29,956 nt of DNA from Promethearchaeota archaeon (GCA_048941265.1 JBHLNT010000037.1:1-29956), one strand, 5' to 3'. Counted from the first letter of the stretch, positions 130-16,089 are shown. Translations and numbers: made by a program. Notes: generated by a model not told the origin, from the letters alone.

Positions 130-1248
130 TTATTCTTTATGTTTGTATTTACGAGGTTTCATCATTTTATCGCCAGTTTCATCTGTTAACTCTTCAATAG
201 CGTCAACCGCAATTTCAGCTTTTTTATAGGGTATAGAAGGTTTTGATTCATCAAAAGGTGCATTACACACCCAACACGCATTTTCTAAATTTGTTAATGC
301 CTCTACACATTTTTTACAATAGAATGCACCACATTTGGAACATGTAAATACATTAAATCTACTTAAATTTCCTTTACATATAAGACATATGCCCTGTTCA
401 CGATATAATGAGATTTCTTCAGGAGTTATTTCCATCGGCCTTGATTTGGATAAAGTTTCGATAAATGAAATTCGAGCATCCATATCCCTCAGTTTAACTC
501 TTTCTTCTCTTTTAAATTTAATCTCTTCTCTCTCGGACACCACTTCCTCTTTTAATCCGAGATACCATAACCAAAAACAGAGAATTAAGGTAAATCGAAT
601 AATAACCAAAGCAATATGCAGAGAAATATACGTTTCTAAAATAAAACAGGTAACATATGTGAGATATCCTACTGATAGTAATAGGAATTTTCTGCGGATC
701 ATTCCAGATGATTGGATACTTTTGAATAAATATCCCAGACCATTGAAAATTAACAATGAGAAAAGAAAAGTAATTGATAGAATAAATAGGGGGGTTCCAT
801 AATTTATCTGGGTATCGATTACATCTTCACCCGGTTTATCGGGATAAGTAAAAGTAAAAAAGCTTGTGGGACCAAAGAAAAGGAATAGTTCCCATAAAAC
901 TCCTAAAACGAGAAATATTGATACAATATACCATTTTTTTCTCGGGATAATAAGTTCTGCTCCTACATATATTCCAAAGATTGTAGCTGGAGCCGCACTG
1001 AAACCACTTAATTTCCCCACTAAAGCATAACGATTATCTAAGTTTCTGCCGGTTAGAATAATGCTTAAAAAATCACAACACGGTCCTAAAATTAGAAGTC
1101 CCGCAAAAAATATCGTTAAGCCCATGAGTGTTAATAGAGGAGCTTTCAATTTCCGAGATCTATAAACAATTATTAGTCCAAAAGTACACCCAAAAATGGT
1201 ATAGCCCAGAGCACTCATACCATTTAACCAACCTGAAAAAGATAACAA
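130..1248 (-). CDS. 7-TM membrane protein with C-terminal C4C4 RING-like zinc finger
   Basis: 372 aa, TTG start. About seven hydrophobic segments in aa 10-231, then a charged linker, then CLIC-x11-CSKC-x4-CKKC-x10-CWVC. Confidence 0.75.
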   Translation of the reverse strand: MLSFSGWLNGMSALGYTIFGCTFGLIIVYRSRKLKAPLLTLMGLTIFFAGLLILGPCCDFLSIILTGRNLDNRYALVGKLSGFSAAPATIFGIYVGAELIIPRKKWYIVSIFLVLGVLWELFLFFGPTSFFTFTYPDKPGEDVIDTQINYGTPLFILSITFLFSLLIFNGLGYLFKSIQSSGMIRRKFLLLSVGYLTYVTCFILETYISLHIALVIIRFTLILCFWLWYLGLKEEVVSEREEIKFKREERVKLRDMDARISFIETLSKSRPMEITPEEISLYREQGICLICKGNLSRFNVFTCSKCGAFYCKKCVEALTNLENACWVCNAPFDESKPSIPYKKAEIAVDAIEELTDETGDKMMKPRKYKHKE

Positions 1249-1530: not shown

Positions 1531-2697
1531 TTGGTAATAAAGATCACACATTTCGAATTTTTAATTTTGTTTTATGATTTGTTTTTTAGCCTTTTTTTCT
1601 TTATTTTAGCGTTGATTATGTTTTTTATAGGATTTAAAGGTCACACAGTTCAAAATCATTACGGTGGTATATCTACTATTATATGTGGAATTATTTTTAT
1701 TATATTTGGATTTTATCAGATTTTTTTTGGATTGTTTCTTTATCCCTACATTGGTTTTACTGTGTGGTGGATGGGAATAATAATTGCCATCAACGGAATT
1801 TTTGGGTTATTTGTCCGTAGGGAATTAAAAAAAATAGGGATTGAGCATCAAAATGGGGCTTACCCTGCCTCTGCAACTTCTCAAAAATCATCTCTCCGAA
1901 AATTTATTCATATCATGACTCAGCAAAATCCAAATGGGGATAATATTTCTCTTAAGATGGAGGCATTTAGAAAAAGCTTTCACTTATGGGGGATCTTATT
2001 TATATTAGCTTATTTTGGATTCTTCTTTCTGCCTCCTTTAACTGAAATGGTCAATAGAAATGTAATTGATTTTATCAAAGAAACAAAATGGCTCTATAGT
2101 ATTATATGGGGTGATGTTGATAAATATCCCTATAAAAAGAAAGATTTTCAAGCAGTTATTGATATTACAATGTTTGCTTTAATTGGAGCGTTATTTTTTA
2201 CAGTAATTCCCGACATAATTAGAGTTATATGGGGTCCAGAATATTCTTTTTTAAATTTTATAACTAAGCCTATACTAAGAAATAAAGAACAAAACTCGAT
2301 TGGTCCTCAAATATTTTTACTCATAGGAGTTTCATTTTCTTATATGCTATATATCATGGGCTTAGTAAATGTCTTAGTTGCTTTTACCGGTATATTAATC
2401 GCCTGTTTTTCAGATGCTTTGGCAGCATTAGTAGGTAGATTTTTTGGAAAGCATAAAGTTAAATGCATTGTCGGAAATATTAAAAGTATTGAGGGCTTTA
2501 TAGCAGGAACGTCTAGTGCTTTTATCATCGGTTTGATTTTATTGGGGCCTATTTATGCTTTTTTAGCTGCTTTCATCTTCTTCTTATTAGATTATTTTCC
2601 TATTTATATCGCTGATAACATCTTAAATCCTATTGTAATTATAATAGTCATCCATCTTGCAGTTTTCTTCTCTGGAATTCCTATTGGATGGTATTAA
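1531..2697 (+). CDS. CTP-dependent diacylglycerol/polyprenol kinase-like membrane protein (cytidylyltransferase / SEC59-DGK1-VTE5 family)
   Basis: Motifs EAFRKSFHL, SDALAALVGRFFGKHK, KSIEGFIAG and DNILNP; polytopic. The TTG start is uncertain. Confidence 0.8.
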   Translation: MVIKITHFEFLILFYDLFFSLFFFILALIMFFIGFKGHTVQNHYGGISTIICGIIFIIFGFYQIFFGLFLYPYIGFTVWWMGIIIAINGIFGLFVRRELKKIGIEHQNGAYPASATSQKSSLRKFIHIMTQQNPNGDNISLKMEAFRKSFHLWGILFILAYFGFFFLPPLTEMVNRNVIDFIKETKWLYSIIWGDVDKYPYKKKDFQAVIDITMFALIGALFFTVIPDIIRVIWGPEYSFLNFITKPILRNKEQNSIGPQIFLLIGVSFSYMLYIMGLVNVLVAFTGILIACFSDALAALVGRFFGKHKVKCIVGNIKSIEGFIAGTSSAFIIGLILLGPIYAFLAAFIFFLLDYFPIYIADNILNPIVIIIVIHLAVFFSGIPIGWY

Positions 2698-2762: not shown

Positions 2763-3893
2763 ATGGCGAATAATAATTCAGATCAATTGCTTACACACCT
2801 TCCATACCTCGAATGGTTGGAAAATGAGTGGGCTAACGATCATAAGATGCAAAGATTCTTTCCAATTCCTTATCCCAAAAAAGAAATATTTAGATGGTTC
2901 ATTAATCATATTTTTGGTCCCTCTAAAAGACGTAGAAAGAAATACAAATTTTTACAGCACGAATCAATATTGAATGAACTAACCACAGTAAACTATAAGA
3001 TTGGATTTGTAGGCGATATTATGAAAATGTTTCAATATTATCTTGTATTTGACCAATCTGTTATAAATTTTTTCGAGGATGTCGAATTAGTCGTAGGGAA
3101 TCTAGAGGGAATATTAACTTTACAACCTGGTTTCATTGCCGCACAAAGACATAATAAAGAAATCGTACAACAATTAAAAACTTTAAAACCAGCTGATAAA
3201 TGGTTATTATGCCTGAGTAATAACCACAGCGGAGATTTTGGTCTTGCAGATTTTGTTTTACACTTAGATCGCTTAAGATTTGAAGGTTTTAATGTATTTG
3301 GAAGAAAAGATATGCCAAATTATGTCTATGATAACAGATTAAATTTTGTATCAGGGACAATGTGGACTAATCAGAAACGCACTAAATATATAACACGTTT
3401 TGAAGAAATAGAAAATTATTATGCTGACGAATCAAATGTCTTTAATATTTTATATCCACATTGGTATTATGAATATGAGTTATATCCACGACTAAAAATT
3501 AAAAAAATTGCTGAAAATCTCCTTGGTAATTGGGATTTAATTTTTGGACACCACCCTCACGTTGTACAACCAATTACTAAAATAAAGGTTGGTGAAATTA
3601 ATAAATTATTGGCTTATTCAGCAGGGAATTTTACAGCAGGTCTCGAAATAGATGCTCATAAGTATGGCTTGATAATGAAATGTGAAATTGGACCATTAAA
3701 ATCAGACTCTTCAAAATTAGCTGTTGGGAAAGTAGAATGGAAGTTTACATATAATGATAATGAAATTGATGAAAATAAAGCAAAATATGTAAAATTCAAA
3801 AAAAATATGCTTAAACCTGCAGATGGACCTATCATTGAAGTTAAAATAGTAGAAGAGAATGAATTTTTTACCCATATAAATTACATGGATTAA
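2763..3893 (+). CDS. CapA (PGA_cap) family metallophosphoesterase
   Basis: FVGDIM, VGNLEG, SNNHSGDFG, PHWYYE, GHHPHVVQP and YSAGNF motifs in the canonical order. Confidence 0.85.
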   Translation: MANNNSDQLLTHLPYLEWLENEWANDHKMQRFFPIPYPKKEIFRWFINHIFGPSKRRRKKYKFLQHESILNELTTVNYKIGFVGDIMKMFQYYLVFDQSVINFFEDVELVVGNLEGILTLQPGFIAAQRHNKEIVQQLKTLKPADKWLLCLSNNHSGDFGLADFVLHLDRLRFEGFNVFGRKDMPNYVYDNRLNFVSGTMWTNQKRTKYITRFEEIENYYADESNVFNILYPHWYYEYELYPRLKIKKIAENLLGNWDLIFGHHPHVVQPITKIKVGEINKLLAYSAGNFTAGLEIDAHKYGLIMKCEIGPLKSDSSKLAVGKVEWKFTYNDNEIDENKAKYVKFKKNMLKPADGPIIEVKIVEENEFFTHINYMD

Positions 3894-3985: not shown

Positions 3986-4834
3986 ATGAGAGAATTTATC
4001 GATGAATTAAATAATATTAAACTGGCAATATTTGATTTAGATGGTGTAATTTATCGTGGTAAAAATTTAATCCCAAATGTAGACGGGATTATAGCAGAGT
4101 TGAGTAAATTATCTATCAAAGTAGTATATAATTCAAATAATTCTACGATAACTCGTGAAATGTATGTAGAAAGGCTGAAAACTTTTAATATCCCTAGCAA
4201 AATTTCTGATTTTTACACAAGTGCTTCTATCACTTCATCAGAAATTACTAAAATAAAAAAAAATGCAAATATTTTCGTAATAGGAGAAATTGGTTTAAGA
4301 GAAGAATTAAAATCAATGGGACACACAATATTGACCAATCCTTCCAATTATGATGATATAGATTTTGTAATTGTAGGTTTAGATAGAGATTTTAAATATG
4401 CTAATTTAGCTATAGCTCAAAAGTGTATTTTAGAGGGCCATGCCCAATTTTATGCGACAAATGCAGATGCAACCTTGCCTGCTGCGAGAGGTTTTTTACC
4501 TGGCGCTGGAGTCATGGTTAAGGCTGTAGAAACTTGTACTTCAAAAAAACCAGTAAAAATATTTGGTAAACCTCATCCTTATGGAATTCAAATGATATTA
4601 AATGATTTAAAGATTCCGGCCAAGGAAGCATGTATTTTTGGGGATCGCTTAAATACGGATATTTTGGCAGGTAATCGTGCTGGGATAATTACTGTTGTGG
4701 TGTTAACTGGAGTCACGACAATTGAACAAATTGAAGACTTAAAGAAAAAATACAAAGAATTTGATAATTTTGATAAAGATTTAATGCCAGACTTAGCCCT
4801 TAATTCTCTGGATGAGATTTTTAAAGTTAATTGA
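3986..4834 (+). CDS. HAD-IIA family hydrolase (NagD-like phosphatase)
   Basis: FDLDGVIY, SNNS, ATNADATLP, GKP, GDRLNTDILAG and VLTGVT motifs. Confidence 0.92.
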   Translation: MREFIDELNNIKLAIFDLDGVIYRGKNLIPNVDGIIAELSKLSIKVVYNSNNSTITREMYVERLKTFNIPSKISDFYTSASITSSEITKIKKNANIFVIGEIGLREELKSMGHTILTNPSNYDDIDFVIVGLDRDFKYANLAIAQKCILEGHAQFYATNADATLPAARGFLPGAGVMVKAVETCTSKKPVKIFGKPHPYGIQMILNDLKIPAKEACIFGDRLNTDILAGNRAGIITVVVLTGVTTIEQIEDLKKKYKEFDNFDKDLMPDLALNSLDEIFKVN

Positions 4835-6098: not shown

Positions 6099-6237
6099 GA
6101 ATTCAAAATTTCCTAGAATTTATTATTCAAGTTTTTCAACGACATAATTAAAAGCTAATACATTTTAATATTTTCATCATTATATATGTAATTATTAGGA
6201 AAATTATATCTGAAAACATATTTAGACTTCTTAAACA

Positions 6238-8673
6238 ATGGAAGATTTTCAAGAACACTCGATTAAAATTATCGTAGTTGGAGATTTTAAAGCAGGTAAG
6301 TCATCTATAGTAAAAAGAATAGTAGAAAACGAATATAGTGCTGCATATAATCCCACTACGGGATTTCACATTTCAAAGAAAATTCTTAATATTGAAGATA
6401 CTATCATTCGATTTAGCATCTGGGATACAGGTGGTCTGATTAGTCAAATTCCTCCCATGAAAAATAAAATTTATAATCATACGGACGCAGCTCTAATTAT
6501 AGTTGATAAAACCCGATCTAACAATGTAAAAAGTATTAAAAAATGGTATGATGAGATAACTAACTCTGTTTCAGAAAAAGTCCCAATAATTGTTATTGGA
6601 ACTAAGAGTGATAAACCTTCGGATAATGTAACAAGTGAAGATGATATTAAGAATATAACAAAAGAATATAATATCCCATATATTTCAGTATCTGCCAAAA
6701 AAGGTGAAAATCTTAATCGTGTACTTATCGAATTAACTCGTAGAATTAGAGAAGATTTAAATAAATTAAAAAATCAACCAATAACAAATAAATATAAATT
6801 CCACTATTTAAATTCTGATGAGACTGAAGCTTTAGAAGATTTAGAAAAATCAATAATAGAAAATTCTAAGAAATCCTTTAATACTAAATTTCAATATGAT
6901 TTAACGAAACTCAAAAATAAAGGCTTCCCTATAATTTTAGATGTAAATGAAACCTCATTTGGGATTAATATTCAAAATGGAAACGTCGTAGAAATTGGTT
7001 TATTTAATTGCAATTTGACAAAACTGCCTGATTCTTTTGCTAATTTTAAATCACTTAAGAAACTTATCTTAAGATGTAATCCCCTTAAGTCTTTTCCTGA
7101 TGCAATAAGCAAATTAAATACTCTTGAAGTATTAGATATGTCCCTTGCAAATCTTAATGAAATACCAATTTTCATTTCAAATCTGCATAATCTCAAGGAA
7201 CTCAATTTAGAAAATAATTGGCTAAGATTCCTTCCCGAATCATTTGGTAGGTTGATTTCTCTAATATTTTTAAATTTAGAAAATAATCCAATCGATCATT
7301 TACCAAAATCTTTTGGAAATCTAAAATCACTCAAAAAACTGTTATTAGAATCTGCTCCTTTCGAATCGAGTGGATATTTAATTAAACTTCCTAAAAATTT
7401 TGGCGATCTTCACTCTCTCCAAGAATTAGATTTAAGTTCTCATAAATTAAGGACACTTCCCGAATCATTTGGAAATCTAAAATCATTAAAGACACTTGAT
7501 TTATTTAATAATCGATTCAAAACACTTCCTATTTACTTTGGAAATCTAAAGGCACTTGAAAAATTAAATTTAGAGAGAAATTTAATACAATTTTTTCCAA
7601 AAGCTTTTGCTAGTTTATCTAATTTAAGATCTATTAACTTAAAAAACAATATTATACCACCAAAAGTAGCATCTAAAAGATTTAAAGCCCTTGCTTTTAA
7701 ATCTGTCGGAGACGATTATAATAGATGGATAAAAATCGCTGAATCATTAGAAAACCACGACGATCAAATGCATTTAGTTAGATCTGATTTAACAGAGAAA
7801 TTGATTTTTAAAAATATAATAATTCCATTAATTTATGCCTGTTCCATTGCGTTTATTGGATTATTGACTTTTTTAACCCTTGACATCGCATCTTTGAAAC
7901 TTGATGTAACTCTTATCTGGGTTCTTTTCTTAGGTGCTCTCATAATAAATCTACTCATCGGAACTTCAATAATCTCTACCATTTCTACCTATTTCAAATT
8001 TTCAATCTCAAAATTCAGTATGATGGTTCAAAAAAATATTCTTAAAAATTTTGATGTTCTTGTAGCTATTTTATTGATTTGGGCTATAAGAGCGGCCGTT
8101 TTGGCAGCATTAAGCATAGAACTCATTCCAGCTATTAATTTTTTATTTGAATTTACAATACCGAAGTGGATTTTAAATATCTTAATCCTTTTTGGATATA
8201 ATATTGATTTAACATTTTTAGAAAATATCGATCTTTTCTTAGGACATTTTTACCTGAAATTATTTAGTGCAGCATTAGTATTTTGGGCATTATATAGAAA
8301 TGGTTTAAATTATATTAGAAAAACTGCATTTGATGAGACTGAAAATAAAAATTTGTGGGGTTTTTTGATAATAGGGCTATTTGGAGCTTTTTGGCTAGCG
8401 ATTATGGATTATAGTACCTTAAAACCAATGTTAAGCATTGGTTACTATGTGGGAGTGTCTTTAGGAGCATTCGTCTTTATATGGGAAAAAAATAAAGAAA
8501 ATAAATTCATATTTTATCTCTATTGTGCAATTTTTGGATTTGGAATTTTAACAGTGTGGTTGTTCTCTCTGTGGAATCTTATGATTTCGCTCTTATTTGG
8601 AATCATGTTTGTCGTTATATTCTTCATATTACGATGGCGATCCCATCAAATTCCGGAAAAAGGTAGGGATTAA
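6238..8673 (+). CDS. Rab-like small GTPase - leucine-rich repeat - multi-TM fusion protein
   Basis: G1 GDFKAGKS, G2 PTTG, G3 WDTGG, G4 GTKSD and G5 SAK in aa ~10-170. About 9 LRRs of LPESFGNLKSLKTLDLFNNRF type in aa ~250-470. About 8-9 hydrophobic helices in aa ~525-800. Confidence 0.88.
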   Translation: MEDFQEHSIKIIVVGDFKAGKSSIVKRIVENEYSAAYNPTTGFHISKKILNIEDTIIRFSIWDTGGLISQIPPMKNKIYNHTDAALIIVDKTRSNNVKSIKKWYDEITNSVSEKVPIIVIGTKSDKPSDNVTSEDDIKNITKEYNIPYISVSAKKGENLNRVLIELTRRIREDLNKLKNQPITNKYKFHYLNSDETEALEDLEKSIIENSKKSFNTKFQYDLTKLKNKGFPIILDVNETSFGINIQNGNVVEIGLFNCNLTKLPDSFANFKSLKKLILRCNPLKSFPDAISKLNTLEVLDMSLANLNEIPIFISNLHNLKELNLENNWLRFLPESFGRLISLIFLNLENNPIDHLPKSFGNLKSLKKLLLESAPFESSGYLIKLPKNFGDLHSLQELDLSSHKLRTLPESFGNLKSLKTLDLFNNRFKTLPIYFGNLKALEKLNLERNLIQFFPKAFASLSNLRSINLKNNIIPPKVASKRFKALAFKSVGDDYNRWIKIAESLENHDDQMHLVRSDLTEKLIFKNIIIPLIYACSIAFIGLLTFLTLDIASLKLDVTLIWVLFLGALIINLLIGTSIISTISTYFKFSISKFSMMVQKNILKNFDVLVAILLIWAIRAAVLAALSIELIPAINFLFEFTIPKWILNILILFGYNIDLTFLENIDLFLGHFYLKLFSAALVFWALYRNGLNYIRKTAFDETENKNLWGFLIIGLFGAFWLAIMDYSTLKPMLSIGYYVGVSLGAFVFIWEKNKENKFIFYLYCAIFGFGILTVWLFSLWNLMISLLFGIMFVVIFFILRWRSHQIPEKGRD

Positions 8674-9582
8674 AGAACGAAAAAAAAGAATTTGGTTTTT
8701 AAAAATAAGATTTCTGAGAAAAAATCTCAGATTTTATTTACTCGTTAATAATTTTCAAATTTGCCCTCAAAATTTTTTATGGGTCTTCTTCAAAAGTTTT
8801 TTATTGAAATCTTATAATACTATTGGGAAATAGATTAAAATATATTAAATGATTTTACTCCTTTTTATTAGCAAATAAAAAATTCACATTTTTCATTATT
8901 TTTCTCGATATTTCTTTATACGCTCCAAAATTATTGTTCAACTGAACTCTTCAATTCTAAGACTTATATCCAATTTGTTGACTAAAATTATTTGATATAA
9001 TTACGAGTTTACACCGATTTATATTAATACGTGAATTATAAGAGAGATTTTTGTCACATTTTTTCTCATAAATTACCCATTTATTAACCGACAAATAAAT
9101 ATTCGAACCAATAATAGCAGGTTAATAAGAGAGTTTTATATATTCTCAATCATATTTTTTCTAGATTGAACTTTTCAATTGAATTTATAAGGGTTTTATC
9201 TTATAACTTATAAAATCTGATTTAAATAACAGTTAAAACTATCGCAAATATGTTAAAATTAAATATTGGTTAAATAATTTGCCGTTAAATCTCCGACAAA
9301 TTATGATTTTCCTCCTTTTTTTTGAACTTATAAATCTGGAATAGAAATTAAGAAATTTATATTTATTTTAGTAATAATATAAATAATTTATATTTTTAAC
9401 TAATTATTGATTTATTGGGCTAAATAATTTTAAGATTTTTTCTTATATGCCCCTCAATTTCAAAATGGATTAGGTTAAATTTTATATTAATATTATTAAT
9501 CCTTTAATATTCTCTATTTTTTCATATTAATCCTGAATCATGGGAAAAATCTTAAATTTATTTCAAACCTCCTATTGAATTA

Positions 9583-9765
9583 TTAAAAATAAAATCTAAA
9601 TATGATTCCAATGGTAAATATTATTAATGAAAATAATATTTTAGGGGATAAAATAGGACCTGAAAGCATAGTTATATTAAGAGATCCATCTTTAGATATG
9701 AAAGCGTTAAAATAATTAAGATATAAAGCAATAAAAAGAAGAAAAAAGATTGAAAGATTGAACAA
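9583..9765 (-). CDS. small 2-TM ORF or remnant of a membrane protein
   Basis: 60 aa, TTG start, two hydrophobic stretches. Lies 45 bp downstream of the last GTPase on the same strand. Could be spurious in T-rich DNA. Confidence 0.3.
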   Translation of the reverse strand: MFNLSIFFLLFIALYLNYFNAFISKDGSLNITMLSGPILSPKILFSLIIFTIGIIFRFYF

Positions 9766-9810
9766 GAAGTTTTAATTAAGAATATAACAACCTAAATTGT
9801 TATGTTTAAT

Positions 9811-10347
9811 TCATTTCAGATATAAAGCAATCTCAAGCATTTTCTGGGAGATAGTATAAAAAATTTCTTCCACATTTTCTCCTGTTTTGGAGGAACATTC
9901 TATAAACTCGTAAAAATTATACTTTTTAGCAAGTTCATTTCCCTCTTCGCTGGAAATTACCCTTTTTTGTTCTAAATCCTTTTTTCCTCCAACCATAATA
10001 AGTGGTATATCAATAAATCTGCTTTCAAAGCTTTTTTTAAACACTTCTAGCCAACTTTCGACATTTTCAATACTCGAATGCCGTGTAATGTCATACATAA
10101 AAATCCCGCCAGAAGATCCTGAAGCATAAGTTGGAAGCAAAAATCTGAATTTATCCTCGCCCGCGAAGTCCCATATTTGTAAAGTTATATCTTTATCGCC
10201 TAAATCTAATTTTTTAATATAGAAATCTGCACCTATTGTAATTTTATATTCACCTTTGAAGGTACCAGTGAGATAACGATTCACCAACGTAGTTTTTCCT
10301 ACGCCTCCATCTCCAAAAACGCAAACTTTAAATTTTGCATAAGGCAT
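9811..10347 (-). CDS. Rab-like small GTPase (4th in transcription order)
   Basis: GDGGVGKT, TIGADF, TLQIWDFAGE, FMYDIT, GGKKD, ECSSKTGENV. Confidence 0.95.
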   Translation of the reverse strand: MPYAKFKVCVFGDGGVGKTTLVNRYLTGTFKGEYKITIGADFYIKKLDLGDKDITLQIWDFAGEDKFRFLLPTYASGSSGGIFMYDITRHSSIENVESWLEVFKKSFESRFIDIPLIMVGGKKDLEQKRVISSEEGNELAKKYNFYEFIECSSKTGENVEEIFYTISQKMLEIALYLK

Positions 10348-10588
10348 AATTAATCCCTCATCATAGAAAATCTCAACATAACTTTCTCCCAGTTAATAAG
10401 CTTAATATCTTAAATTTTATTTAAATTTTTTAATTTTTAGATCACAAAATGAATCATAAATGTAAAAATTATCCAATATATCAGAAAAATTACTAAGTTT
10501 TTTAATAAATCAGCTTACTTTTAAATCTTATCTTATTAGGAGTCATAATTTTTTTATTTTTCTAAATAAAAAGGAAACTTTAAGGTAA

Positions 10589-11116
10589 TTATTGTCTTTC
10601 CATCATCATTTTAGTTAATTTTTCAAAAATTAAAAGGACATTTTCTCCAGTTTTTGCAGAGCATTCTATACAGTCACTAATTCCATCAAGAGAGTCCACA
10701 ATTGCTTGAGCATCTTCATAAGATACTGCCCTTTTAAAATCCAAATCTTTTTTGCTCCCAACCATCAATAGAGGAATATTCATTTCATTTCTTTTACTCC
10801 CTTCTTCAAAGACTTCCATCCAATTGTTAAAATTTCTAAAGCTGGAAAATCTTGTAATATCATACATGAATATTGCGCCGGATGCCCCTAGTAAATAGCT
10901 AGGTAAGATGAAACGGAAACGGTCTTCTCCAGCAAAATCCCATATTTGTAAGGTGACTGACCGTCCATTGCTCTCAAATTTTTTTACATAAAAATTAACA
11001 CCAATTGTTATTTTGAGGTGATCTTTAAAAGCGCCTGTCAAATAGCGATTAACTAAAGTTGTTTTACCTACTCCTCCGTCACCGAGGATACAGATCTTAT
11101 AGATTGATTGTGTCAT
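10589..11116 (-). CDS. Rab-like small GTPase (3rd)
   Basis: GDGGVGKT, TIGVNF, TLQIWDFAGE, FMYDIT, GSKKD, ECSAKTGENV. Confidence 0.95.
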   Translation of the reverse strand: MTQSIYKICILGDGGVGKTTLVNRYLTGAFKDHLKITIGVNFYVKKFESNGRSVTLQIWDFAGEDRFRFILPSYLLGASGAIFMYDITRFSSFRNFNNWMEVFEEGSKRNEMNIPLLMVGSKKDLDFKRAVSYEDAQAIVDSLDGISDCIECSAKTGENVLLIFEKLTKMMMERQ

Positions 11117-11172
11117 TTGTGACTGCCTAATTGTAAAAAAAATCCTTTTTCTTTAAAATCTAATAAAACTAG

Positions 11173-11186
11173 TTATTTATAATTTT
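11173..11186 (-). promoter_or_regulatory. candidate TATA-box region upstream of GTPase 10589..11116
   Basis: Reads AAAATTATAAATAA on the - strand, ~57 bp upstream of the start. The identical 14-mer lies upstream of the neighbouring paralog (11886-11899). Confidence 0.35.
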
Positions 11187-11313
11187 TTTTAATTGATATT
11201 CTTTAAAAACAAAGATGATTAAAAAATTTTTGAATTCATTAGAGTATCCTAATATTTTACAAATATAATGGAATTTTTGTTATCTATCGATATATGATTT
11301 ATTCATAAAATGC

Positions 11314-11841
11314 TTAATTTGTTTTTTCTAACATCATTTTAGTGATGCTTTCGAAAATTTCGTCTACATTTTTGCCTGTTTTCGAGGAACATTCAAAATA
11401 TTGAGAAAATTTGTGTTTTTCAGCAATTTCTATAGCATGATCAGTCATTACGGTTCTTCTATGAATTAAATCTAATTTTCCTCCAACCATAATAATTGGA
11501 ATTTCTTTATTATAATTTTTAGTTCCTTTGTGAAATACGTCCATCCAATCGGTTAAATTATAAATACTTGAATCTCTAGTGATATCAAACATAAATATAC
11601 AACCTGAACTACCAATAATATAACTAGGTAATATAAATTTGAAACGCTCTTCTCCAGCAAAATCCCAAATTTGCAAGGTTATTGTTGCTCCATCTACATT
11701 TATTCTTTTAACAAAAAAATCTGCTCCTATAGTAATCTTATAATGTTCTTGAAAGATGCCAGTAAGATAGCGTTTCACAAGTGTTGTTTTTCCCACACCA
11801 CCATCGCCGAATATACAGATTTTAAATTTTTCCGTCTTCAA
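11314..11841 (-). CDS. Rab-like small GTPase (2nd)
   Basis: GDGGVGKT, TIGADF, TLQIWDFAGE, FMFDIT, GGKLD, ECSSKTGKNV; TTG start. Confidence 0.95.
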   Translation of the reverse strand: MKTEKFKICIFGDGGVGKTTLVKRYLTGIFQEHYKITIGADFFVKRINVDGATITLQIWDFAGEERFKFILPSYIIGSSGCIFMFDITRDSSIYNLTDWMDVFHKGTKNYNKEIPIIMVGGKLDLIHRRTVMTDHAIEIAEKHKFSQYFECSSKTGKNVDEIFESITKMMLEKTN

Positions 11842-11885
11842 TATGAGATTATTAATTTTCGAAATTTGAAACTGTAATGGGCTTA

Positions 11886-11899
11886 TTATTTATAATTTT
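11886..11899 (-). promoter_or_regulatory. candidate TATA-box region upstream of GTPase 11314..11841
   Basis: AAAATTATAAATAA on the - strand, ~45 bp upstream of the TTG start. Confidence 0.35.
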
Positions 11900-12008
11900 A
11901 TTTTATTCGGAAGTTCTATTACTCCAATTTAAAAAAAAATATAGATAAAAAAATAGAATTTTCTCCAATTTTCGAAATCTATCCTTATTTTCCCCTAAAT
12001 TAAGTGGG

Positions 12009-12542
12009 CTATATTAAATTTGCCCGTTTGGTAAGTTCTAAGGCTAGCTTATAGAAGATAATTTCTACATTTTCTCCAGTTTTAGCGGATGTTTCAATAT
12101 AATCTAATAGATTAAGCTTTTTCGCCATATCAACAGCGTCCTTACTAAAAACTGATCTTCTATCATGTAAATCTAATTTTCCTCCAATCATAATGATCGG
12201 GACATCGATTTTCATATCTGCTGTTCCTTCTTTAAATATTTTAAGCCAATCGTCAAAATTACGTAAACTAGAACGTCTAGTAATATCAAACATAAATAAT
12301 CCGCCTGATGCACCTTTTACATATCCTGGAAGAAGAAATCGGAAGCGATCTTCACCAGCAAAGTCCCATAATTGTAAAGATACTCTTTTGCCATGGAATT
12401 CAAATTTTTTCATGTGAAAATCTACCCCAAGAGTCATACTTGAATCTCCAGTGAATAATCCAGTAAGATATCGCTTAACTAAAGAAGTCTTACCTACACC
12501 TCCATCTCCAAAAATGCAAACTTTAAAAAGTGCATCCTGCAT
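12009..12542 (-). CDS. Rab-like small GTPase (1st)
   Basis: GDGGVGKT, TLGVDF, SLQLWDFAGE, FMFDIT, GGKLD, ETSAKTGENV. Confidence 0.95.
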   Translation of the reverse strand: MQDALFKVCIFGDGGVGKTSLVKRYLTGLFTGDSSMTLGVDFHMKKFEFHGKRVSLQLWDFAGEDRFRFLLPGYVKGASGGLFMFDITRRSSLRNFDDWLKIFKEGTADMKIDVPIIMIGGKLDLHDRRSVFSKDAVDMAKKLNLLDYIETSAKTGENVEIIFYKLALELTKRANLI

Positions 12543-12727
12543 TATATTCTCCCGCGGAAAAGTGTTTATTTGTAGAAATTCATTATAAAATGATTATAAA
12601 TATTTCCTTAATAAAATATTTAAGAATTTCAATTAATATTAAACCATCTTTTATTTTTATAATTTTAGTTGGAATAATTATTGATGGGTATGAATCAGAT
12701 TGCAAATAGAGAATTTGAAAAATAAGG

Positions 12728-12847
12728 TTATTTCAGATAAAATGTCTCATTTTTTATTTCCAACTTACCAACGCTTTTTAATAATTTAAGCATTATCCCT
12801 CTTTCTTTCAAATATATATCAAGTAGATCATACCCAAATGATAGATT
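12728..12847 (-). pseudogene. possible 3' gene relic (39 codons, no upstream start)
   Basis: Stop-to-stop frame NLSFGYDLLDIYLKERGIMLKLLKSVGKLEIKNETFYLK*. Reads like a helix plus beta-hairpin (winged-helix-like) C-terminus. Confidence 0.3.
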
Positions 12848-12981
12848 TTATTCATCTTTTATATTAATTCAGTGAAAGTGTAGAAAGTATAGAAATTAAA
12901 CTAGAAAAGAAGTATTATAATAACCTTCATGCGAAAATAGAGGTGCTTTAGGTGAAATCCGTATTTTATGAGGAGCAAAAT

Positions 12982-14406
12982 TTATTCCTCCTCACTTTTA
13001 TTTTTTTCTTTTAACATATGAAAATAATTTATTAGAAAATAGAAATTTGATAATCTTGTATTGATAATTGAATTTATTTGAACGAATTCATTTGGAGCAT
13101 GCGCAAATCCTCCAATTCCTAATCCTCCAACAATAAAATTAAGCCCTAATTCTTTTTGAATTTTACTCAATGGTGCTGCTGCGGCACTAAAAGGCCAGAT
13201 TTCTGTTTGAACTCCTAAAATATCAAAGCTTTTTATTAAACTCCTAACTAAAATGGAGTCTCTACTAACTCTGGAACCTTCATAGCCCACATTTCTAAGT
13301 AATTCAATGTGAGATGTGGATTTCTTTTCGTAATTTTTAACCTTTTCTTCGATTTCTTTAAATATTATTTCAGTTGAAATATTGTGAGCAAACCTTATAT
13401 CAACATTACATAATGCTTGATTAGGAACCATATTCTTAGTTCCTTCCCCTAAAAATCCTGATTTAAGTGTTGAAATATTGAAAGTCGGCTTAAAAAGATA
13501 ATCTGTAAAAGCTTTCTTGGGATTATTTTCTATTGTTTCAATAATTCCTGCTTTTTTTTTAATTATTTCAAGATCAAATTGTTTCATTAAATTTTCAATA
13601 GTATCACGTTCTTCTTCGGTATAGATATATGCATTTTTCAAGCTATCAATCAGAAACTCATTATTCGAATAAATTCTATTAAGAAGTGAGATCAGCTCTG
13701 TAGCTGGATTAGGTATCATTGCACTAAATGCTGAATGCGATTCCTTGTTTTTTGAATGAATCTTTAGAGTTAACGAGAGAATGCCTCTGTAGCCTAACTT
13801 CAATACAGAAGTACCGTTTATATCTTGTTTAATTGAAGGATAATACGCATCAATACATTGTTTGAATACTTCTTTTTTATGTTCTAGAAGGTTTAATAAT
13901 GATTGAGAGCCAATTTCCTCCTCACCATCAAAGAGTATTAACAAGGATAAAGGAAGTAAATCATTTTCTTTCAGTAACTTTATGACATTTAAAAAGCATA
14001 GAAGTGCTGATTTGGTATTATATGCACCTCGAGCTATTATACATTTGCCTAGTGCATCTAAGGGGGGTGGAAGGATCTTAACTTTTGCTTCAAATGGATC
14101 ACTAATCCATTCTCCTTCATTATTAATCGGTTGAGTATCATACATCATATATATCAGTAGGCTCTCATTTGATTTTCCTTTAACCTTAACTAAAATTAGG
14201 GGATTAATTTCTCCCTCAAATTCCGTGATTTCTTCAGAAAATTCCGATGTATAAGATTTAATAAAATCCGCGGCTTTCCTAATCCCCGCCTTATTAAGGG
14301 TTATACTTGGGATTCTTAGAAAGGGTTTAAGATCGTATTCGAGGAATTCTCCATTACTTCTTGTAATTAAATCTTCAATATTATGAATTGAATTTTCATT
14401 AAACAT
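12982..14406 (-). CDS. M20/M25/M40 family metallo-hydrolase (ArgE/DapE/dipeptidase-like)
   Basis: YMMYDTQP, W-x-SDPF, ARGAYNTK, DGEEEIGS, LGYRG, ESHSA, PTFNI, AHAPNE. Confidence 0.88.
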   Translation of the reverse strand: MFNENSIHNIEDLITRSNGEFLEYDLKPFLRIPSITLNKAGIRKAADFIKSYTSEFSEEITEFEGEINPLILVKVKGKSNESLLIYMMYDTQPINNEGEWISDPFEAKVKILPPPLDALGKCIIARGAYNTKSALLCFLNVIKLLKENDLLPLSLLILFDGEEEIGSQSLLNLLEHKKEVFKQCIDAYYPSIKQDINGTSVLKLGYRGILSLTLKIHSKNKESHSAFSAMIPNPATELISLLNRIYSNNEFLIDSLKNAYIYTEEERDTIENLMKQFDLEIIKKKAGIIETIENNPKKAFTDYLFKPTFNISTLKSGFLGEGTKNMVPNQALCNVDIRFAHNISTEIIFKEIEEKVKNYEKKSTSHIELLRNVGYEGSRVSRDSILVRSLIKSFDILGVQTEIWPFSAAAAPLSKIQKELGLNFIVGGLGIGGFAHAPNEFVQINSIINTRLSNFYFLINYFHMLKEKNKSEEE

Positions 14407-14476
14407 ATAGAATATAATAGTTAAATTGCATTAATTAATTATCATTATTATTCTAATTATTGATATCATCCTAAAA

Positions 14477-14851
14477 ATGAATGAAAATAGTAAATCTAAA
14501 CAATTATATCTTATATTAGATGATATTAAAAACAAGGGTAAACTTAAAGGGGTCATATTTGCTAAACGAGATGGTGATCTCATAGCAGAAAACATTGAAA
14601 ATAATTTTGATGGTGTTACATTCGCTGCAATGTGTGCTTCCGTGCTAGAAAGTTCAGAGGATCTCAAAAAGACTTTAGGATCTAAAAAAATTGGCAAAAT
14701 AAGTGCAGATCTAGAAAATGGTCAAACAATCATTATTATTGAATGTGATGGTAAAACATTTATTTCATTTATCCTTGGGAAGGAATCTCAAATTGAACAA
14801 ATTCTAAAAAATATTGAAGAATATTGCTTGAAAATTTTAAAAAGTTGCTAA
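14477..14851 (+). CDS. Roadblock/LC7 domain protein
   Basis: 124 aa. GVIFAKRDGDLIA followed by helix FAAMCASVLESSE and alternating beta strands, the typical Roadblock/MglB pattern. Confidence 0.85.
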   Translation: MNENSKSKQLYLILDDIKNKGKLKGVIFAKRDGDLIAENIENNFDGVTFAAMCASVLESSEDLKKTLGSKKIGKISADLENGQTIIIIECDGKTFISFILGKESQIEQILKNIEEYCLKILKSC

Positions 14852-14895: not shown

Positions 14896-16089
14896 TTAAC
14901 TTTGATCTACTAATTCTACAAAATGTAGTGCTATTTCAGTTGCTTGCGCTATTCTCTCTCCGGATAGCCTCTCTGCAATATCATTCTCTGTATGCCAATC
15001 TGGAGGAGTTCCCTTTTTTGAAAGTCCAAACAACGTCGTTGCATGAAGTCCTTTTCTTGAGAAATTGGCTGCATCACTCCCTGCAAATTTTAATGGTTCA
15101 ACTTCAATTGCGATTTTTAAATCCTCAGCAGCTTTTTTAACAAAATCTATAACTCTAGTAGAGTGCTTTGCCAAATATGTTGGCTCAGCAGTAGCAAGCA
15201 AAAATCTTTCAGCACTTAAACATTCCAAATTAAATAACATTGCTTCACGTTCCATTAGTTCATGTTTATATTTTGATACAAAACGTTTCGAACCTCTCAT
15301 ATGTTCTTCTCCTGCAAAACTTACAATCCATAACTCCGTTTCTTTTGGTTTATTTTTAGAAAAATATTTACCGCATTCAATAGCTGCTGCAACAGCGGAT
15401 AAGTTGTCGTTAGCACCCATTACTACTTTATTTGAGCGTAAAAATTTTGCGAAAATTAATACTAAAATTACCCCTATAATAAAAAATATCACTTGAATAA
15501 AATCTATTAATGCAATATAATCCTGCGCTTCTATCATAATAAAAATAGTCTTAATTATTCCTAGGATTATGTTAACAAAAGAAATAAGCAAAACAGATAT
15601 TATTAACAATGCCGATTTTTCTCCTAATTTACTTAATAATGGAAATTCATAAGCCGAGTCATGGTGCCCTGCTAATAATACTAACTTTTTTGGTGTGTTT
15701 TGTGGCTTTATTTTTCCTATCACATGAAAAGATTTCTTTTTTGGGAAAAAAAAATCAACTACTTCCATCAAAAGCATTTGCTGAAAGAAAAAGATAAGTA
15801 TTGCTAAAATTATAAAAATTACAGAGAGAATCGGAATAAAGAAATAACTAATTACTCCTGCGATATAGAGCACCGCAGTGATATAAATCCAATCAAGAAA
15901 TCCTCTGGGGTGGCATTCAAAATCATGTCTTTCCACTTGATCGCAAAATGTCGACATTTTATTTTGGATTAATTCTCCGGCTTTTCTTTCTTCTTCAGAG
16001 CCCCCTATTCTAGGGCCAACCTCATCACAAATCATCTTTACAAATTCCAGCATATCCTTTCCAGAAGGATCAATCTTAGTAGTCATCAT
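14896..16089 (-). CDS. membrane-embedded M28 family Zn peptidase
   Basis: GPRIGGS, AGHHDS, GANDNLSAVA, GEEH, NLE, GSDA and WHTEND motifs, with two inserted TM hairpins. Confidence 0.88.
   Translation of the reverse strand: MMTTKIDPSGKDMLEFVKMICDEVGPRIGGSEEERKAGELIQNKMSTFCDQVERHDFECHPRGFLDWIYITAVLYIAGVISYFFIPILSVIFIILAILIFFFQQMLLMEVVDFFFPKKKSFHVIGKIKPQNTPKKLVLLAGHHDSAYEFPLLSKLGEKSALLIISVLLISFVNIILGIIKTIFIMIEAQDYIALIDFIQVIFFIIGVILVLIFAKFLRSNKVVMGANDNLSAVAAAIECGKYFSKNKPKETELWIVSFAGEEHMRGSKRFVSKYKHELMEREAMLFNLECLSAERFLLATAEPTYLAKHSTRVIDFVKKAAEDLKIAIEVEPLKFAGSDAANFSRKGLHATTLFGLSKKGTPPDWHTENDIAERLSGERIAQATEIALHFVELVDQS

Follow-up and report, generated by a model that had tools for sequence, protein, structure and literature searches.

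A Lokiarchaeial locus with a GTPase-LRR-membrane fusion, four tandem Rab-like GTPases and a Roadblock gene, read as a patchwork of separately evolving parts

The 29,956-nucleotide stretch of DNA analysed here (hereafter the window) is contig C250 of a Promethearchaeota archaeon genome (G000; 5.0 Mb in 361 contigs, 91% complete), and its positions 6,238 to 14,851 carry a gene in which a GTPase domain is fused to leucine-rich repeats (LRRs) and a polytopic membrane region, an array of four Rab-like GTPase genes (G1-G4), an M20-like peptidase gene and a gene for a Roadblock protein (Roadblock-1). A first-pass annotation had regarded these genes as a candidate signalling module, in which the fusion would hold the tail-less GTPases at the membrane and the Roadblock protein would act as GTPase-activating protein (GAP) or adaptor. 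Every gene of that annotation was recovered by an open reading frame (ORF) listing combined with Pfam searches. Comparison with related genomes (G001, G008, G009 etc.; g1, g2, g4, g8 etc. denote genera within the same Lokiarchaeial family) nevertheless suggests, with about even confidence on our part, that three parts with separate histories form a patchwork here and do not make up one dedicated module. The oldest layer would be a block in which one Rab-like GTPase gene and two Roadblock genes stand among unrelated enzymes, kept through most of one Lokiarchaeial family. As a second layer, the single GTPase gene would have been copied to two and then to four paralogues in one clade, G1 being the original and G4, G3 and G2 the copies. 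The third layer, confined to the same clade, would be a (Roadblock)-GTPase-LRR-membrane gene that landed between the HAD gene and the array, a recent arrival that has lost its own Roadblock domain.

The evidence for the oldest layer comes from 25 other genomes whose locus we read. The conserved order is Roadblock-2, cytidylyltransferase-like gene, HAD gene, one Rab-like GTPase gene, M20-like gene, Roadblock-1 and M28 peptidase gene. Roadblock-1 is divergent from the M20-like gene in 21 of the 25, the GTPase gene lies at the other side of the M20-like gene in 22, and both arrangements occur together in 20; the contig of G014 ends too early for the Roadblock-1/GTPase pair to be scored. Loci with both Roadblock-1 and the GTPase span genera g1, g2, g3, g4, g5, g6 and g11, and the pair formed by the cytidylyltransferase-like and HAD genes stands next to the GTPase side of the block in 20/25. 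Two genomes of genus g8 (G058 and G016) have neither Roadblock-1 nor the Rab-like gene at the locus, where the M20-like gene persists. In both of them the M20-like gene is adjoined by an Arf/Gtr1(Rag)-like GTPase of 412 aa that is extended at either side (L023:4646-5881 in G058, L024:7495-8730 in G016), and similar genes are found at L017:3496-4743 and L035:1401-2648.

The second Roadblock gene of the block, Roadblock-2, is a canonical one that the first-pass annotation did not contain. It is located immediately outside the left end of the window, past the RING-like gene by ~170 bp. In the same genome it occupies C294:24066-24440 on the minus strand, scores 73.8 bits against PF03259 and is 96% identical to its copy in G001; since the end of C294 and the start of the window overlap by ~77 bp in G001 coordinates, the two contigs join. 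The gene is found beyond the cytidylyltransferase-like gene in 12 related loci, with PF03259 scores of 74-76 bits in the three copies scanned. Conserved as it is, the block is not an operon, because Roadblock-1 is on the opposite strand, the spacer between the GTPase and M20-like genes varies (from 140 bp to 1.6 kb) and genes have been inserted there. The gap between G1 and the M20-like gene indeed appears to be prone to insertions: G001 and G008 have a 350-aa gene in it (L008:13436-14491 and L014:5082-6134, respectively), which is missing from the window, and G008 has TnpB/IS605-like fragments at the same spot (L014:6662-7576).

The four GTPases of the array, announced by the first-pass annotation as tandem and Rab-like, are both. 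They are encoded co-directionally, score 148-166 bits against the Pfam Ras model, and are mutually 50-53% identical, compared with 26% identity to the GTP-binding (G) domain of the fusion. At the DNA level the copies are 62-74% alike and spaced by 701-769 bp, and we regard the array as the product of tandem duplication, not of chance. The best solved relatives of G1 are Rab43, Rab30, Rab11, Sec4, Rab14 and Thor-Rab (E 2e-37 to 5e-33). G1-G4 carry the motifs of Rab-like small GTPases (PF00071) except for the catalytic Gln and the Asn of NKxD; of the features of the eukaryotic Rab family proper, they have Rabs as closest solved relatives and lack the prenylatable C-terminal cysteines. In an alignment of 26 sequences (G1-G4 and 22 syntenic orthologues) GDGGVGKT, T37, WDFAG and S[AS]K show little or no variation, the catalytic Gln is replaced by Glu (WDFAGE[D/E]) in G1-G4 and in 25 of the 26 sequences overall, and a C-terminal Cys is found in none (0/26), which agrees with the first-pass description of these proteins as tail-less. 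Where NKxD is expected, G1-G4 have [G/S]KxD. The array products would be soluble switches without a lipid-anchor cysteine, and as the latter and the catalytic Gln are both missing, they plausibly need partners. The Glu variant is not peculiar to the array, because it forms a large paralogous group, to which 17 of the top 60 Ras matches in G000 belong.

A maximum-likelihood tree of 46 GTPase sequences places G1 together with the single syntenic genes of G002, G005, G006 and G009 (support 99/99). Orthologues of G2 are found only in G001 and G008; the same is true of G3, apart from a dispersed extra copy (C138:8237-8731), and the clade of G4 holds copies of G001, G008 and G009 only. G1 is 55-89% identical to the 22 syntenic orthologues and is, judged by the tree and these identities, the orthologue of the single GTPase kept at the locus across the family. 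When G4 was compared with five genomes, its best match was the lone syntenic gene in four, none of which belongs to the genus. The fourfold state is confined to a single clade within the genus (G000, G001 and G008). In our reading, the single gene was amplified within this clade, first to two copies and then to four, which later diverged; alternatively, the duplication may be older and copies may have been lost since. The dispersed G3-type copy belongs to a region (C138:8237-15186) in which it lies 3-6 kb from three genes for LRR proteins of 455-505 aa.

The fusion, the third layer, is as the first-pass annotation had described it: Pfam detects Ras (109 bits, residues 10-171) followed, beyond a linker, by LRR_8 (94 bits) and LRR_14 (96 bits) at ~245-500, and the C-terminal third is hydrophobic, with seven segments between 527 and 798 by hydropathy; the membrane module lies at approximately aa 520-811. 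An AlphaFold2 (AF2) model of this module built with seven orthologues shows eight helices, with a confidence too poor to define a fold (predicted local distance difference test, pLDDT, 47; predicted template modelling score, pTM, 0.26), and a protein atlas offered no usable neighbour (best 0.81). The G domain is Rab/Roc-like and has GDFKAGKS, the switch-I T, WDTGG and SAK, with TKSD as its G4 motif and no C-terminal cysteine. The position of the catalytic Gln is occupied by Leu in the window (WDTGGL) and by Leu or Phe in the orthologues. Membership of the ROCO proteins was considered and rejected, as there is no COR match and the order is Roc-like domain, then LRRs.

Matches to the membrane module were detected in 6 of 40 other related genomes (G001, G008, G010, G022, G012 and G024; E 1e-83 to 1e-154), and the module is 48-83% identical to that of other (Roadblock)-GTPase-LRR-membrane proteins; the fusion orthologues of G010, G022, G012 and G024 are 48-52% identical. 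The orthologues of G001, G008, G012 and G024 are 946-949 aa long owing to ~142 extra N-terminal residues, at the place of which the window fusion has a clean in-frame gap (MEDF|QEHSIK); the G010 copy lacks them too. Contigs of runs X1 and X2 read across this junction, so an isolated assembly error does not explain the short form; in run X3, 6148-6484 is uncovered. The AF2 model of the extra domain (pLDDT 79) has the order alpha-beta2-alpha-beta3-alpha, which is the Roadblock order, and matches LAMTOR, an MK-D1 Roadblock and MglB (Foldseek E 3e-5 to 1e-4; template modelling (TM) scores 0.52-0.69). Sequence-only tests were weak (hhalign probability 29%; PDB E 0.4-0.5), and it is the structure model alone that settles the assignment of this domain to the Roadblock fold. 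The window fusion is a member of a Lokiarchaeial (Roadblock)-GTPase-LRR-membrane family in its Roadblock-less form. That it lacks a Roadblock domain which most orthologues carry had been missed by the first-pass annotation.

The wider family suggests which of its parts is the core. Among 40 database clusters with the membrane module, 14 combine it with a G domain in 788-817 aa, 20 with a G domain in 934-964 aa, and 6 have no G-domain hit in Pfam; judged by length, 14/40 are therefore of the short, Roadblock-less type. An exhaustive profile search of 1.84 billion proteins returned 30 representative clusters, some of them stand-alone modules of ~300 aa. LRRs stand before, after or on both sides of the membrane module in 9 of 10 scanned members. 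Since LRRs are this regular while the G domain varies among clusters, LRRs and membrane module form the constant unit, to which G domain and Roadblock are add-ons. Proteins P0014, P0035, P0043, P0044, P0045, P0047, P0053, P0058 and P0060 have the module with LRRs in varying order, and also alone. Within the module, the motifs GYNxxLxxLENxDLFxxHF and KTAF[DE]E are conserved, and invariant polar residues (Asn, Asp, Glu, His, Arg) lie inside the predicted helices, which argues for more than a passive anchor. The fusion would most likely work alone, with a G domain that is slow or locked because Leu replaces the catalytic Gln and that is connected by the LRRs to the polar-studded membrane module; its nucleotide state would gate LRR-mediated binding at the membrane.

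The location of the fusion in other genomes bears directly on the proposal that it anchors the array GTPases. In G001, of the same genus, the whole order of the window is kept, with the fusion beside the array. In G008, the array, the M20-like gene and the Roadblock gene are on one contig and the fusion and the HAD gene on another; the two contigs share one exact 31-mer, yet the array contig runs on into a UvrC-like ORF. An arrangement with fusion and array side by side is thus certain for G000 and G001 only. In G010 and G022 (g2) and in G012 and G024 (g4) it lies elsewhere, the block retaining a single Rab-like GTPase gene, and a profile search found no other Ras-like gene and no Roadblock-1 relative in the fetched flanks of these four fusions; a paralogous GTPase gene occurs 11 kb from the fusion on the same contig in G010. 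The anchoring proposal consequently fails the test of synteny across related genomes. These dispersed orthologues, and a family core made of LRRs and membrane module, indicate that the fusion is independent of the array.

Roadblock-1 on its own scores 21.6 bits, just below the Pfam cut-off of 23. A profile of 20 orthologues, however, matches, along its full length, MK-D1 Roadblock3 (9jue; 8e-12) and MglB (2e-5), which identifies Roadblock-1 as a full-length MglB-type Roadblock by profile comparison. The G000 genome contains 90 Ras, 20 Roadblock and ~26 LRR loci, and arrays of Ras genes are common in it, with further runs on C164, C241, C237, C339 and C341. Four of the 20 Roadblock genes lie within 2 kb of a Ras gene, compared with 1.4 expected, and 4.8% of 2000 random placements reach four; three of these pairs are adjacent or fused (C159, C282, C140), and the window Roadblock, at 1986 bp, is the fourth. 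Of 26 LRR loci, 5 have a separate Ras match at a distance of 3 kb or less, versus 2.5 expected (P ~0.11), which is no significant enrichment. Within G000 alone, neither Roadblock-Ras nor LRR-Ras proximity is compelling, and the distance of the window Roadblock from a Ras gene is close to what chance would give. The C282 and C140 genes are single ORFs with Roadblock followed by Ras (C282:4882-5811 (+), 325 aa; C140:6207-7109 (-), 319 aa), and C159:24927-25865 (+) is an adjacent Roadblock and GTPase pair, whose Roadblock is the closest paralogue (54.5%) of Roadblock-2.

The case for a link between Roadblock-1 and the GTPase is comparative: their co-location in 20/25 genomes, and the two g8 genomes from whose locus both are missing. 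We also modelled two Roadblock-1 chains with G1, GTP and Mg, using orthologue alignments. The score was 0.52 versus 0.01 for the best control, the runs agreed in at least 90% of contacts, and partner pLDDT was at least 87. This counts as weak support. Of 80 solved complexes, 58 attain the pass mark, as do 2 of 110 mismatched pairs; passes at 0.60 or less comprise only 7 of the 80 complexes and both of the passing mismatches. Because MglA-MglB structures have been solved, the pass may also mirror likeness to them and not the pair's own binding. The one functional link that we consider plausible, though less likely than not, is that Roadblock-1 would control or retain the GTPase lineage of the block much as MglB does MglA, either as a homodimer or together with Roadblock-2. 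The GAP or adaptor role proposed for it in the first-pass annotation draws on co-location and on the weak model pass; the two genes are never adjacent and lie on opposite strands.

The gene between them has proven to be less ordinary than the peptidase of the first-pass annotation. The best solved relative of the M20-like protein is Sso-CP2 (6e-43). The five metal ligands of the M20 family are His, Asp, Glu, Glu/Asp and His. In comparison with Sso-CP2, 2pok and CNDP2, three of these positions are changed (H to M, D to N, and E or D to Y or I; relative to Sso-CP2 the third change is E to Y), while Glu-Glu and the last His are kept. The chemistry is probably not that of a dinuclear peptidase; and because the changes are invariant in 25/25 orthologues, the protein is likely a pseudo-peptidase or an enzyme with altered chemistry. 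Databases annotate it as an ordinary metallo-hydrolase. Of 101 genomes sampled in the family, 85 have an orthologue, compared with 0/19 in sister families (E<=1e-40). The gene always lies between the GTPase gene and Roadblock-1, and its spacer with the latter is at most 119 bp in the loci measured, mostly 24-77 bp; one value of 16 bp is attributed to an over-long ORF call.

Several observations weigh against the patchwork reading or against the Roadblock-GTPase link that forms part of it. The clade with four GTPase copies is also the clade with the fusion at the site, and although this amounts to one event, a functional tie would be compatible with it. As the deep nodes joining the four GTPase types in the tree lack resolution, a duplication older than the genus, followed by loss, could likewise account for the array. 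The GTPase and Roadblock-1 genes are always one to two genes apart, unlike the clear Roadblock-GTPase units of the same genome on C159, C282 and C140. Roadblock-1 is missing in G121 and G017, where the GTPase is still there. In six loci an opposite-strand gene of 384-389 aa, absent from the window, stands between the GTPase and M20-like genes (L020:4854-6014, L022:4864-6018, L026:4849-6018, L016:8504-9667, L038:7394-8557 and L039:4913-6076). Finally, the conserved order by itself does not single out the Roadblock-GTPase pair, since the block includes enzymes without an evident tie to GTPases.

A rival view is that there is no functional link at all, that every adjacency is inherited order or chance insertion, and that Roadblock-1 has another partner. 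We consider this plausible, if on balance doubtful. In its favour are the crowding of Ras, Roadblock and LRR loci in a 5.0-Mb genome, in which 1.4 of 20 Roadblocks are expected within 2 kb of a Ras gene by chance alone, the unrelated enzymes in the block, and the two losses of Roadblock-1 without loss of the GTPase; the region is also prone to insertions, as seen from the PGA_cap-like, 411-aa helical, 350-aa and 387-aa genes and the TnpB-like pieces in G008. It does not explain why two Roadblock genes and a Rab-like GTPase gene have been kept in the block over at least seven genera while the flanks change, nor why g8, which lacks Roadblock-1 and the Rab-like gene, has the Arf/Gtr1-like GTPase beside the M20-like gene, and the complex model, which passes weakly, also speaks against it. 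The opposite view is that of an integrated module, in which the LRRs of the fusion recruit the four tail-less GTPases to the membrane and the free Roadblock serves as GAP or adaptor, perhaps in place of the lost domain. The fusion and the four-copy array do stand together in G000 and G001, and both exist in G008; two free Roadblock genes border the neighbourhood, and the window fusion has lost its own Roadblock domain; none of the GTPases has a cysteine for a lipid anchor; and a conserved unit of LRRs and membrane module must bind something. We nevertheless find such a module very improbable, given that the co-location is one evolutionary event in one clade, that four genomes of two other genera hold the fusion away from Ras and Roadblock genes and keep a single-copy GTPase at the block, and that Roadblock-less fusions are common (14/40 clusters by length) and in G010 do not lie beside the free Roadblock of the block. 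Moreover, LRR loci are not enriched near Ras genes in G000, and the fusion and the array are convergent over a 1.1-kb spacer.

A further possibility is that the remodelled M20-like protein is a sensor of a ligand (peptide or amino acid) or an effector, tied to the Rab-like GTPase via a Roadblock dimer in a loosely Ragulator-Rag-like manner. Its constant place between the GTPase gene and Roadblock-1, the short spacer it shares with the latter, the M28 peptidase genes that follow, and the invariance of the three changed ligand positions, which argues for a conserved function beyond ordinary dinuclear peptidase chemistry, would fit such a role. The evidence is nonetheless synteny alone, the retained catalytic Glu-Glu and last His may indicate an enzyme with altered metal use, and the M20-like gene persists in g8 without Roadblock-1 or the Rab-like gene, so that we deem the idea a long shot. 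No more credible is its extension to the whole locus, according to which the family-wide part would be one nutrient- or peptide-sensing GTPase switch (Roadblock-1, perhaps with Roadblock-2, the Glu-variant GTPase, and the M20-like protein as ligand sensor), here multiplied fourfold beside a Roadblock-less membrane LRR platform. If true, the sensing switch would be an archaeal counterpart, in logic, to Ragulator-Rag and its enzyme-derived sensors.

The remaining features of the window, the G+C content of which is 23-34%, are listed together with the genes discussed above in Table 1. Database sources assign close relatives of its proteins to Promethearchaeota or Lokiarchaeota, both of them names within Asgard.

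Table 1. Features of the window, with coordinates counted from its first base
Feature	Position	Strand	Basis and remarks
RING-like protein, 372 aa	130-1248	-	six hydropathy membrane segments; weak C-terminal C3HC4 RING match, E 4e-4
Cytidylyltransferase-like membrane protein	1531-2697	+	Pfam; older member of conserved block
PGA_cap-like gene	2763-3893	+	Pfam; insertion between cytidylyltransferase-like and HAD genes in this clade
HAD phosphatase	3986-4834	+	Pfam; older member of conserved block
All-helical protein without family, 411 aa	4863-6098	-	no Pfam match; divergent from fusion
GTPase-LRR-membrane fusion, 811 aa	6238-8673	+	Pfam Ras, LRR; hydropathy
AT-rich non-coding spacer, 1.1 kb	8674-9810	.	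fusion and array converge on it
G4, Rab-like GTPase, 178 aa	9811-10347	-	Pfam Ras 165.9 bits; WDFAGED, GKKD; no C-terminal Cys
G3, Rab-like GTPase, 175 aa	10589-11116	-	Pfam Ras 150.6 bits; WDFAGED, SKKD
G2, Rab-like GTPase, 175 aa	11314-11841	-	Pfam Ras 160.1 bits; WDFAGEE, GKLD
G1, Rab-like GTPase, 177 aa	12009-12542	-	Pfam Ras 148.1 bits; WDFAGED, GKLD
M20-like gene	12982-14406	-	Pfam Peptidase_M20 and M20_dimer
Roadblock-1, 124 aa	14477-14851	+	Robl_LC7 21.6 bits; divergent from M20-like gene, 70-bp spacer
M28 peptidase	14896-16089	-	four predicted membrane segments

The spacer between the fusion and the array contains no ORF of at least 80 aa, no tRNA and no Rfam match, and is 68.5% identical to the corresponding spacer of G001 over 448 bp. 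A 60-aa two-helix ORF within it (9583-9765, minus strand) was dropped as a gene candidate, not being conserved in G001, G008 or G009. The window as a whole is devoid of tRNA genes and Rfam families, and a promoter and terminator scan, which uses a bacterial model, remained at the level of shuffled sequence. G001 has the gene for the 411-aa helical protein, G008 lacks it at the corresponding place, and the structural neighbours of its product in the protein atlas are only HEAT/TPR-like, at TM below 0.5. The product of 130-1248(-) may be a membrane-bound RING E3-like protein, the match being under the cut-off; the gene is in G001 too, and was not seen in the blocks of other genera. The M28 gene that follows Roadblock-1 in other genera (422 aa; L008:16828-18096 in G001) is missing from the window, whose own M28 is ~30% identical to the 422-aa protein and is an orthologue of the second M28 gene of G001.

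Asgard archaea possess dozens of Rab-, Arf- and Rag-like GTPases together with Roadblock and longin proteins, and how such tail-less switches are regulated and reach membranes bears on the start of eukaryotic membrane traffic. The locus does not supply a ready-made module of anchor, GTPase and GAP. What it offers are handles: a pair for testing, namely a Roadblock and a Rab-like GTPase lineage that have remained neighbours throughout a family; natural copy numbers of one, two and four paralogues to compare; and Roadblock-containing and Roadblock-less forms of a membrane GTPase-LRR protein in close relatives.

Among known systems, mglA and mglB are adjacent in one operon, and MglA keeps its catalytic Gln. 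The likeness to MglA-MglB (Myxococcus, Thermus; a Ras-like GTPase and its Roadblock-dimer GAP) consists in a full-length Roadblock near a single-domain GTPase, in the MglB match and in the 2:1 complex model; here, by contrast, an M20-like gene intervenes, the strands are opposite, and the GTPases are Rab-like and not MglA-like, with Glu at the position of the catalytic Gln. Like the ROCO proteins (LRRK2, Chlorobium Roco; LRR-Roc-COR), the fusion has LRRs and a Roc-type G domain (PF08477, 77 bits) on a single polypeptide, but in the window the G domain precedes the LRRs, Pfam finds no COR, and a membrane module stands at the end. Our literature search returned no paper on a GTPase-LRR-membrane fusion or on the conserved block in Asgard archaea, although the supplements of Tran et al. 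2024 and Liu et al. 2020, which were outside the search, may list them; nor was a paper found for the 9JUE structure. According to Liu et al. 2020 (10.1101/2020.10.19.343400), an operon of a LAMTOR1-like gene, a Rab-like GTPase and a DENN gene is predicted in most Asgard archaea. As in that operon, a Roadblock-superfamily gene is here near a Rab-like, not a Rag-like, GTPase; unlike in it, there is no DENN gene and the genes are neither adjacent nor co-directional. The main results of Tran et al. 2024 (PMC10933270) contain no LRR-membrane fusion, no Glu-variant tandem array and no block of Roadblock, M20-like and GTPase genes, which their supplements may list. The Asgard GTPases and Roadblocks described in that paper, including the 74 paralogues of MK-D1, are together with MglA-MglB the nearest known parallel: C-terminal cysteines are missing from a Rab-like core, paralogues are numerous (90 matches here), and there are free Roadblock dimers as well as Roadblock-GTPase architectures, represented here by C282, C140 and the fusion orthologues, with Roadblock-1 nearest to MK-D1 Roadblock3 (9jue).

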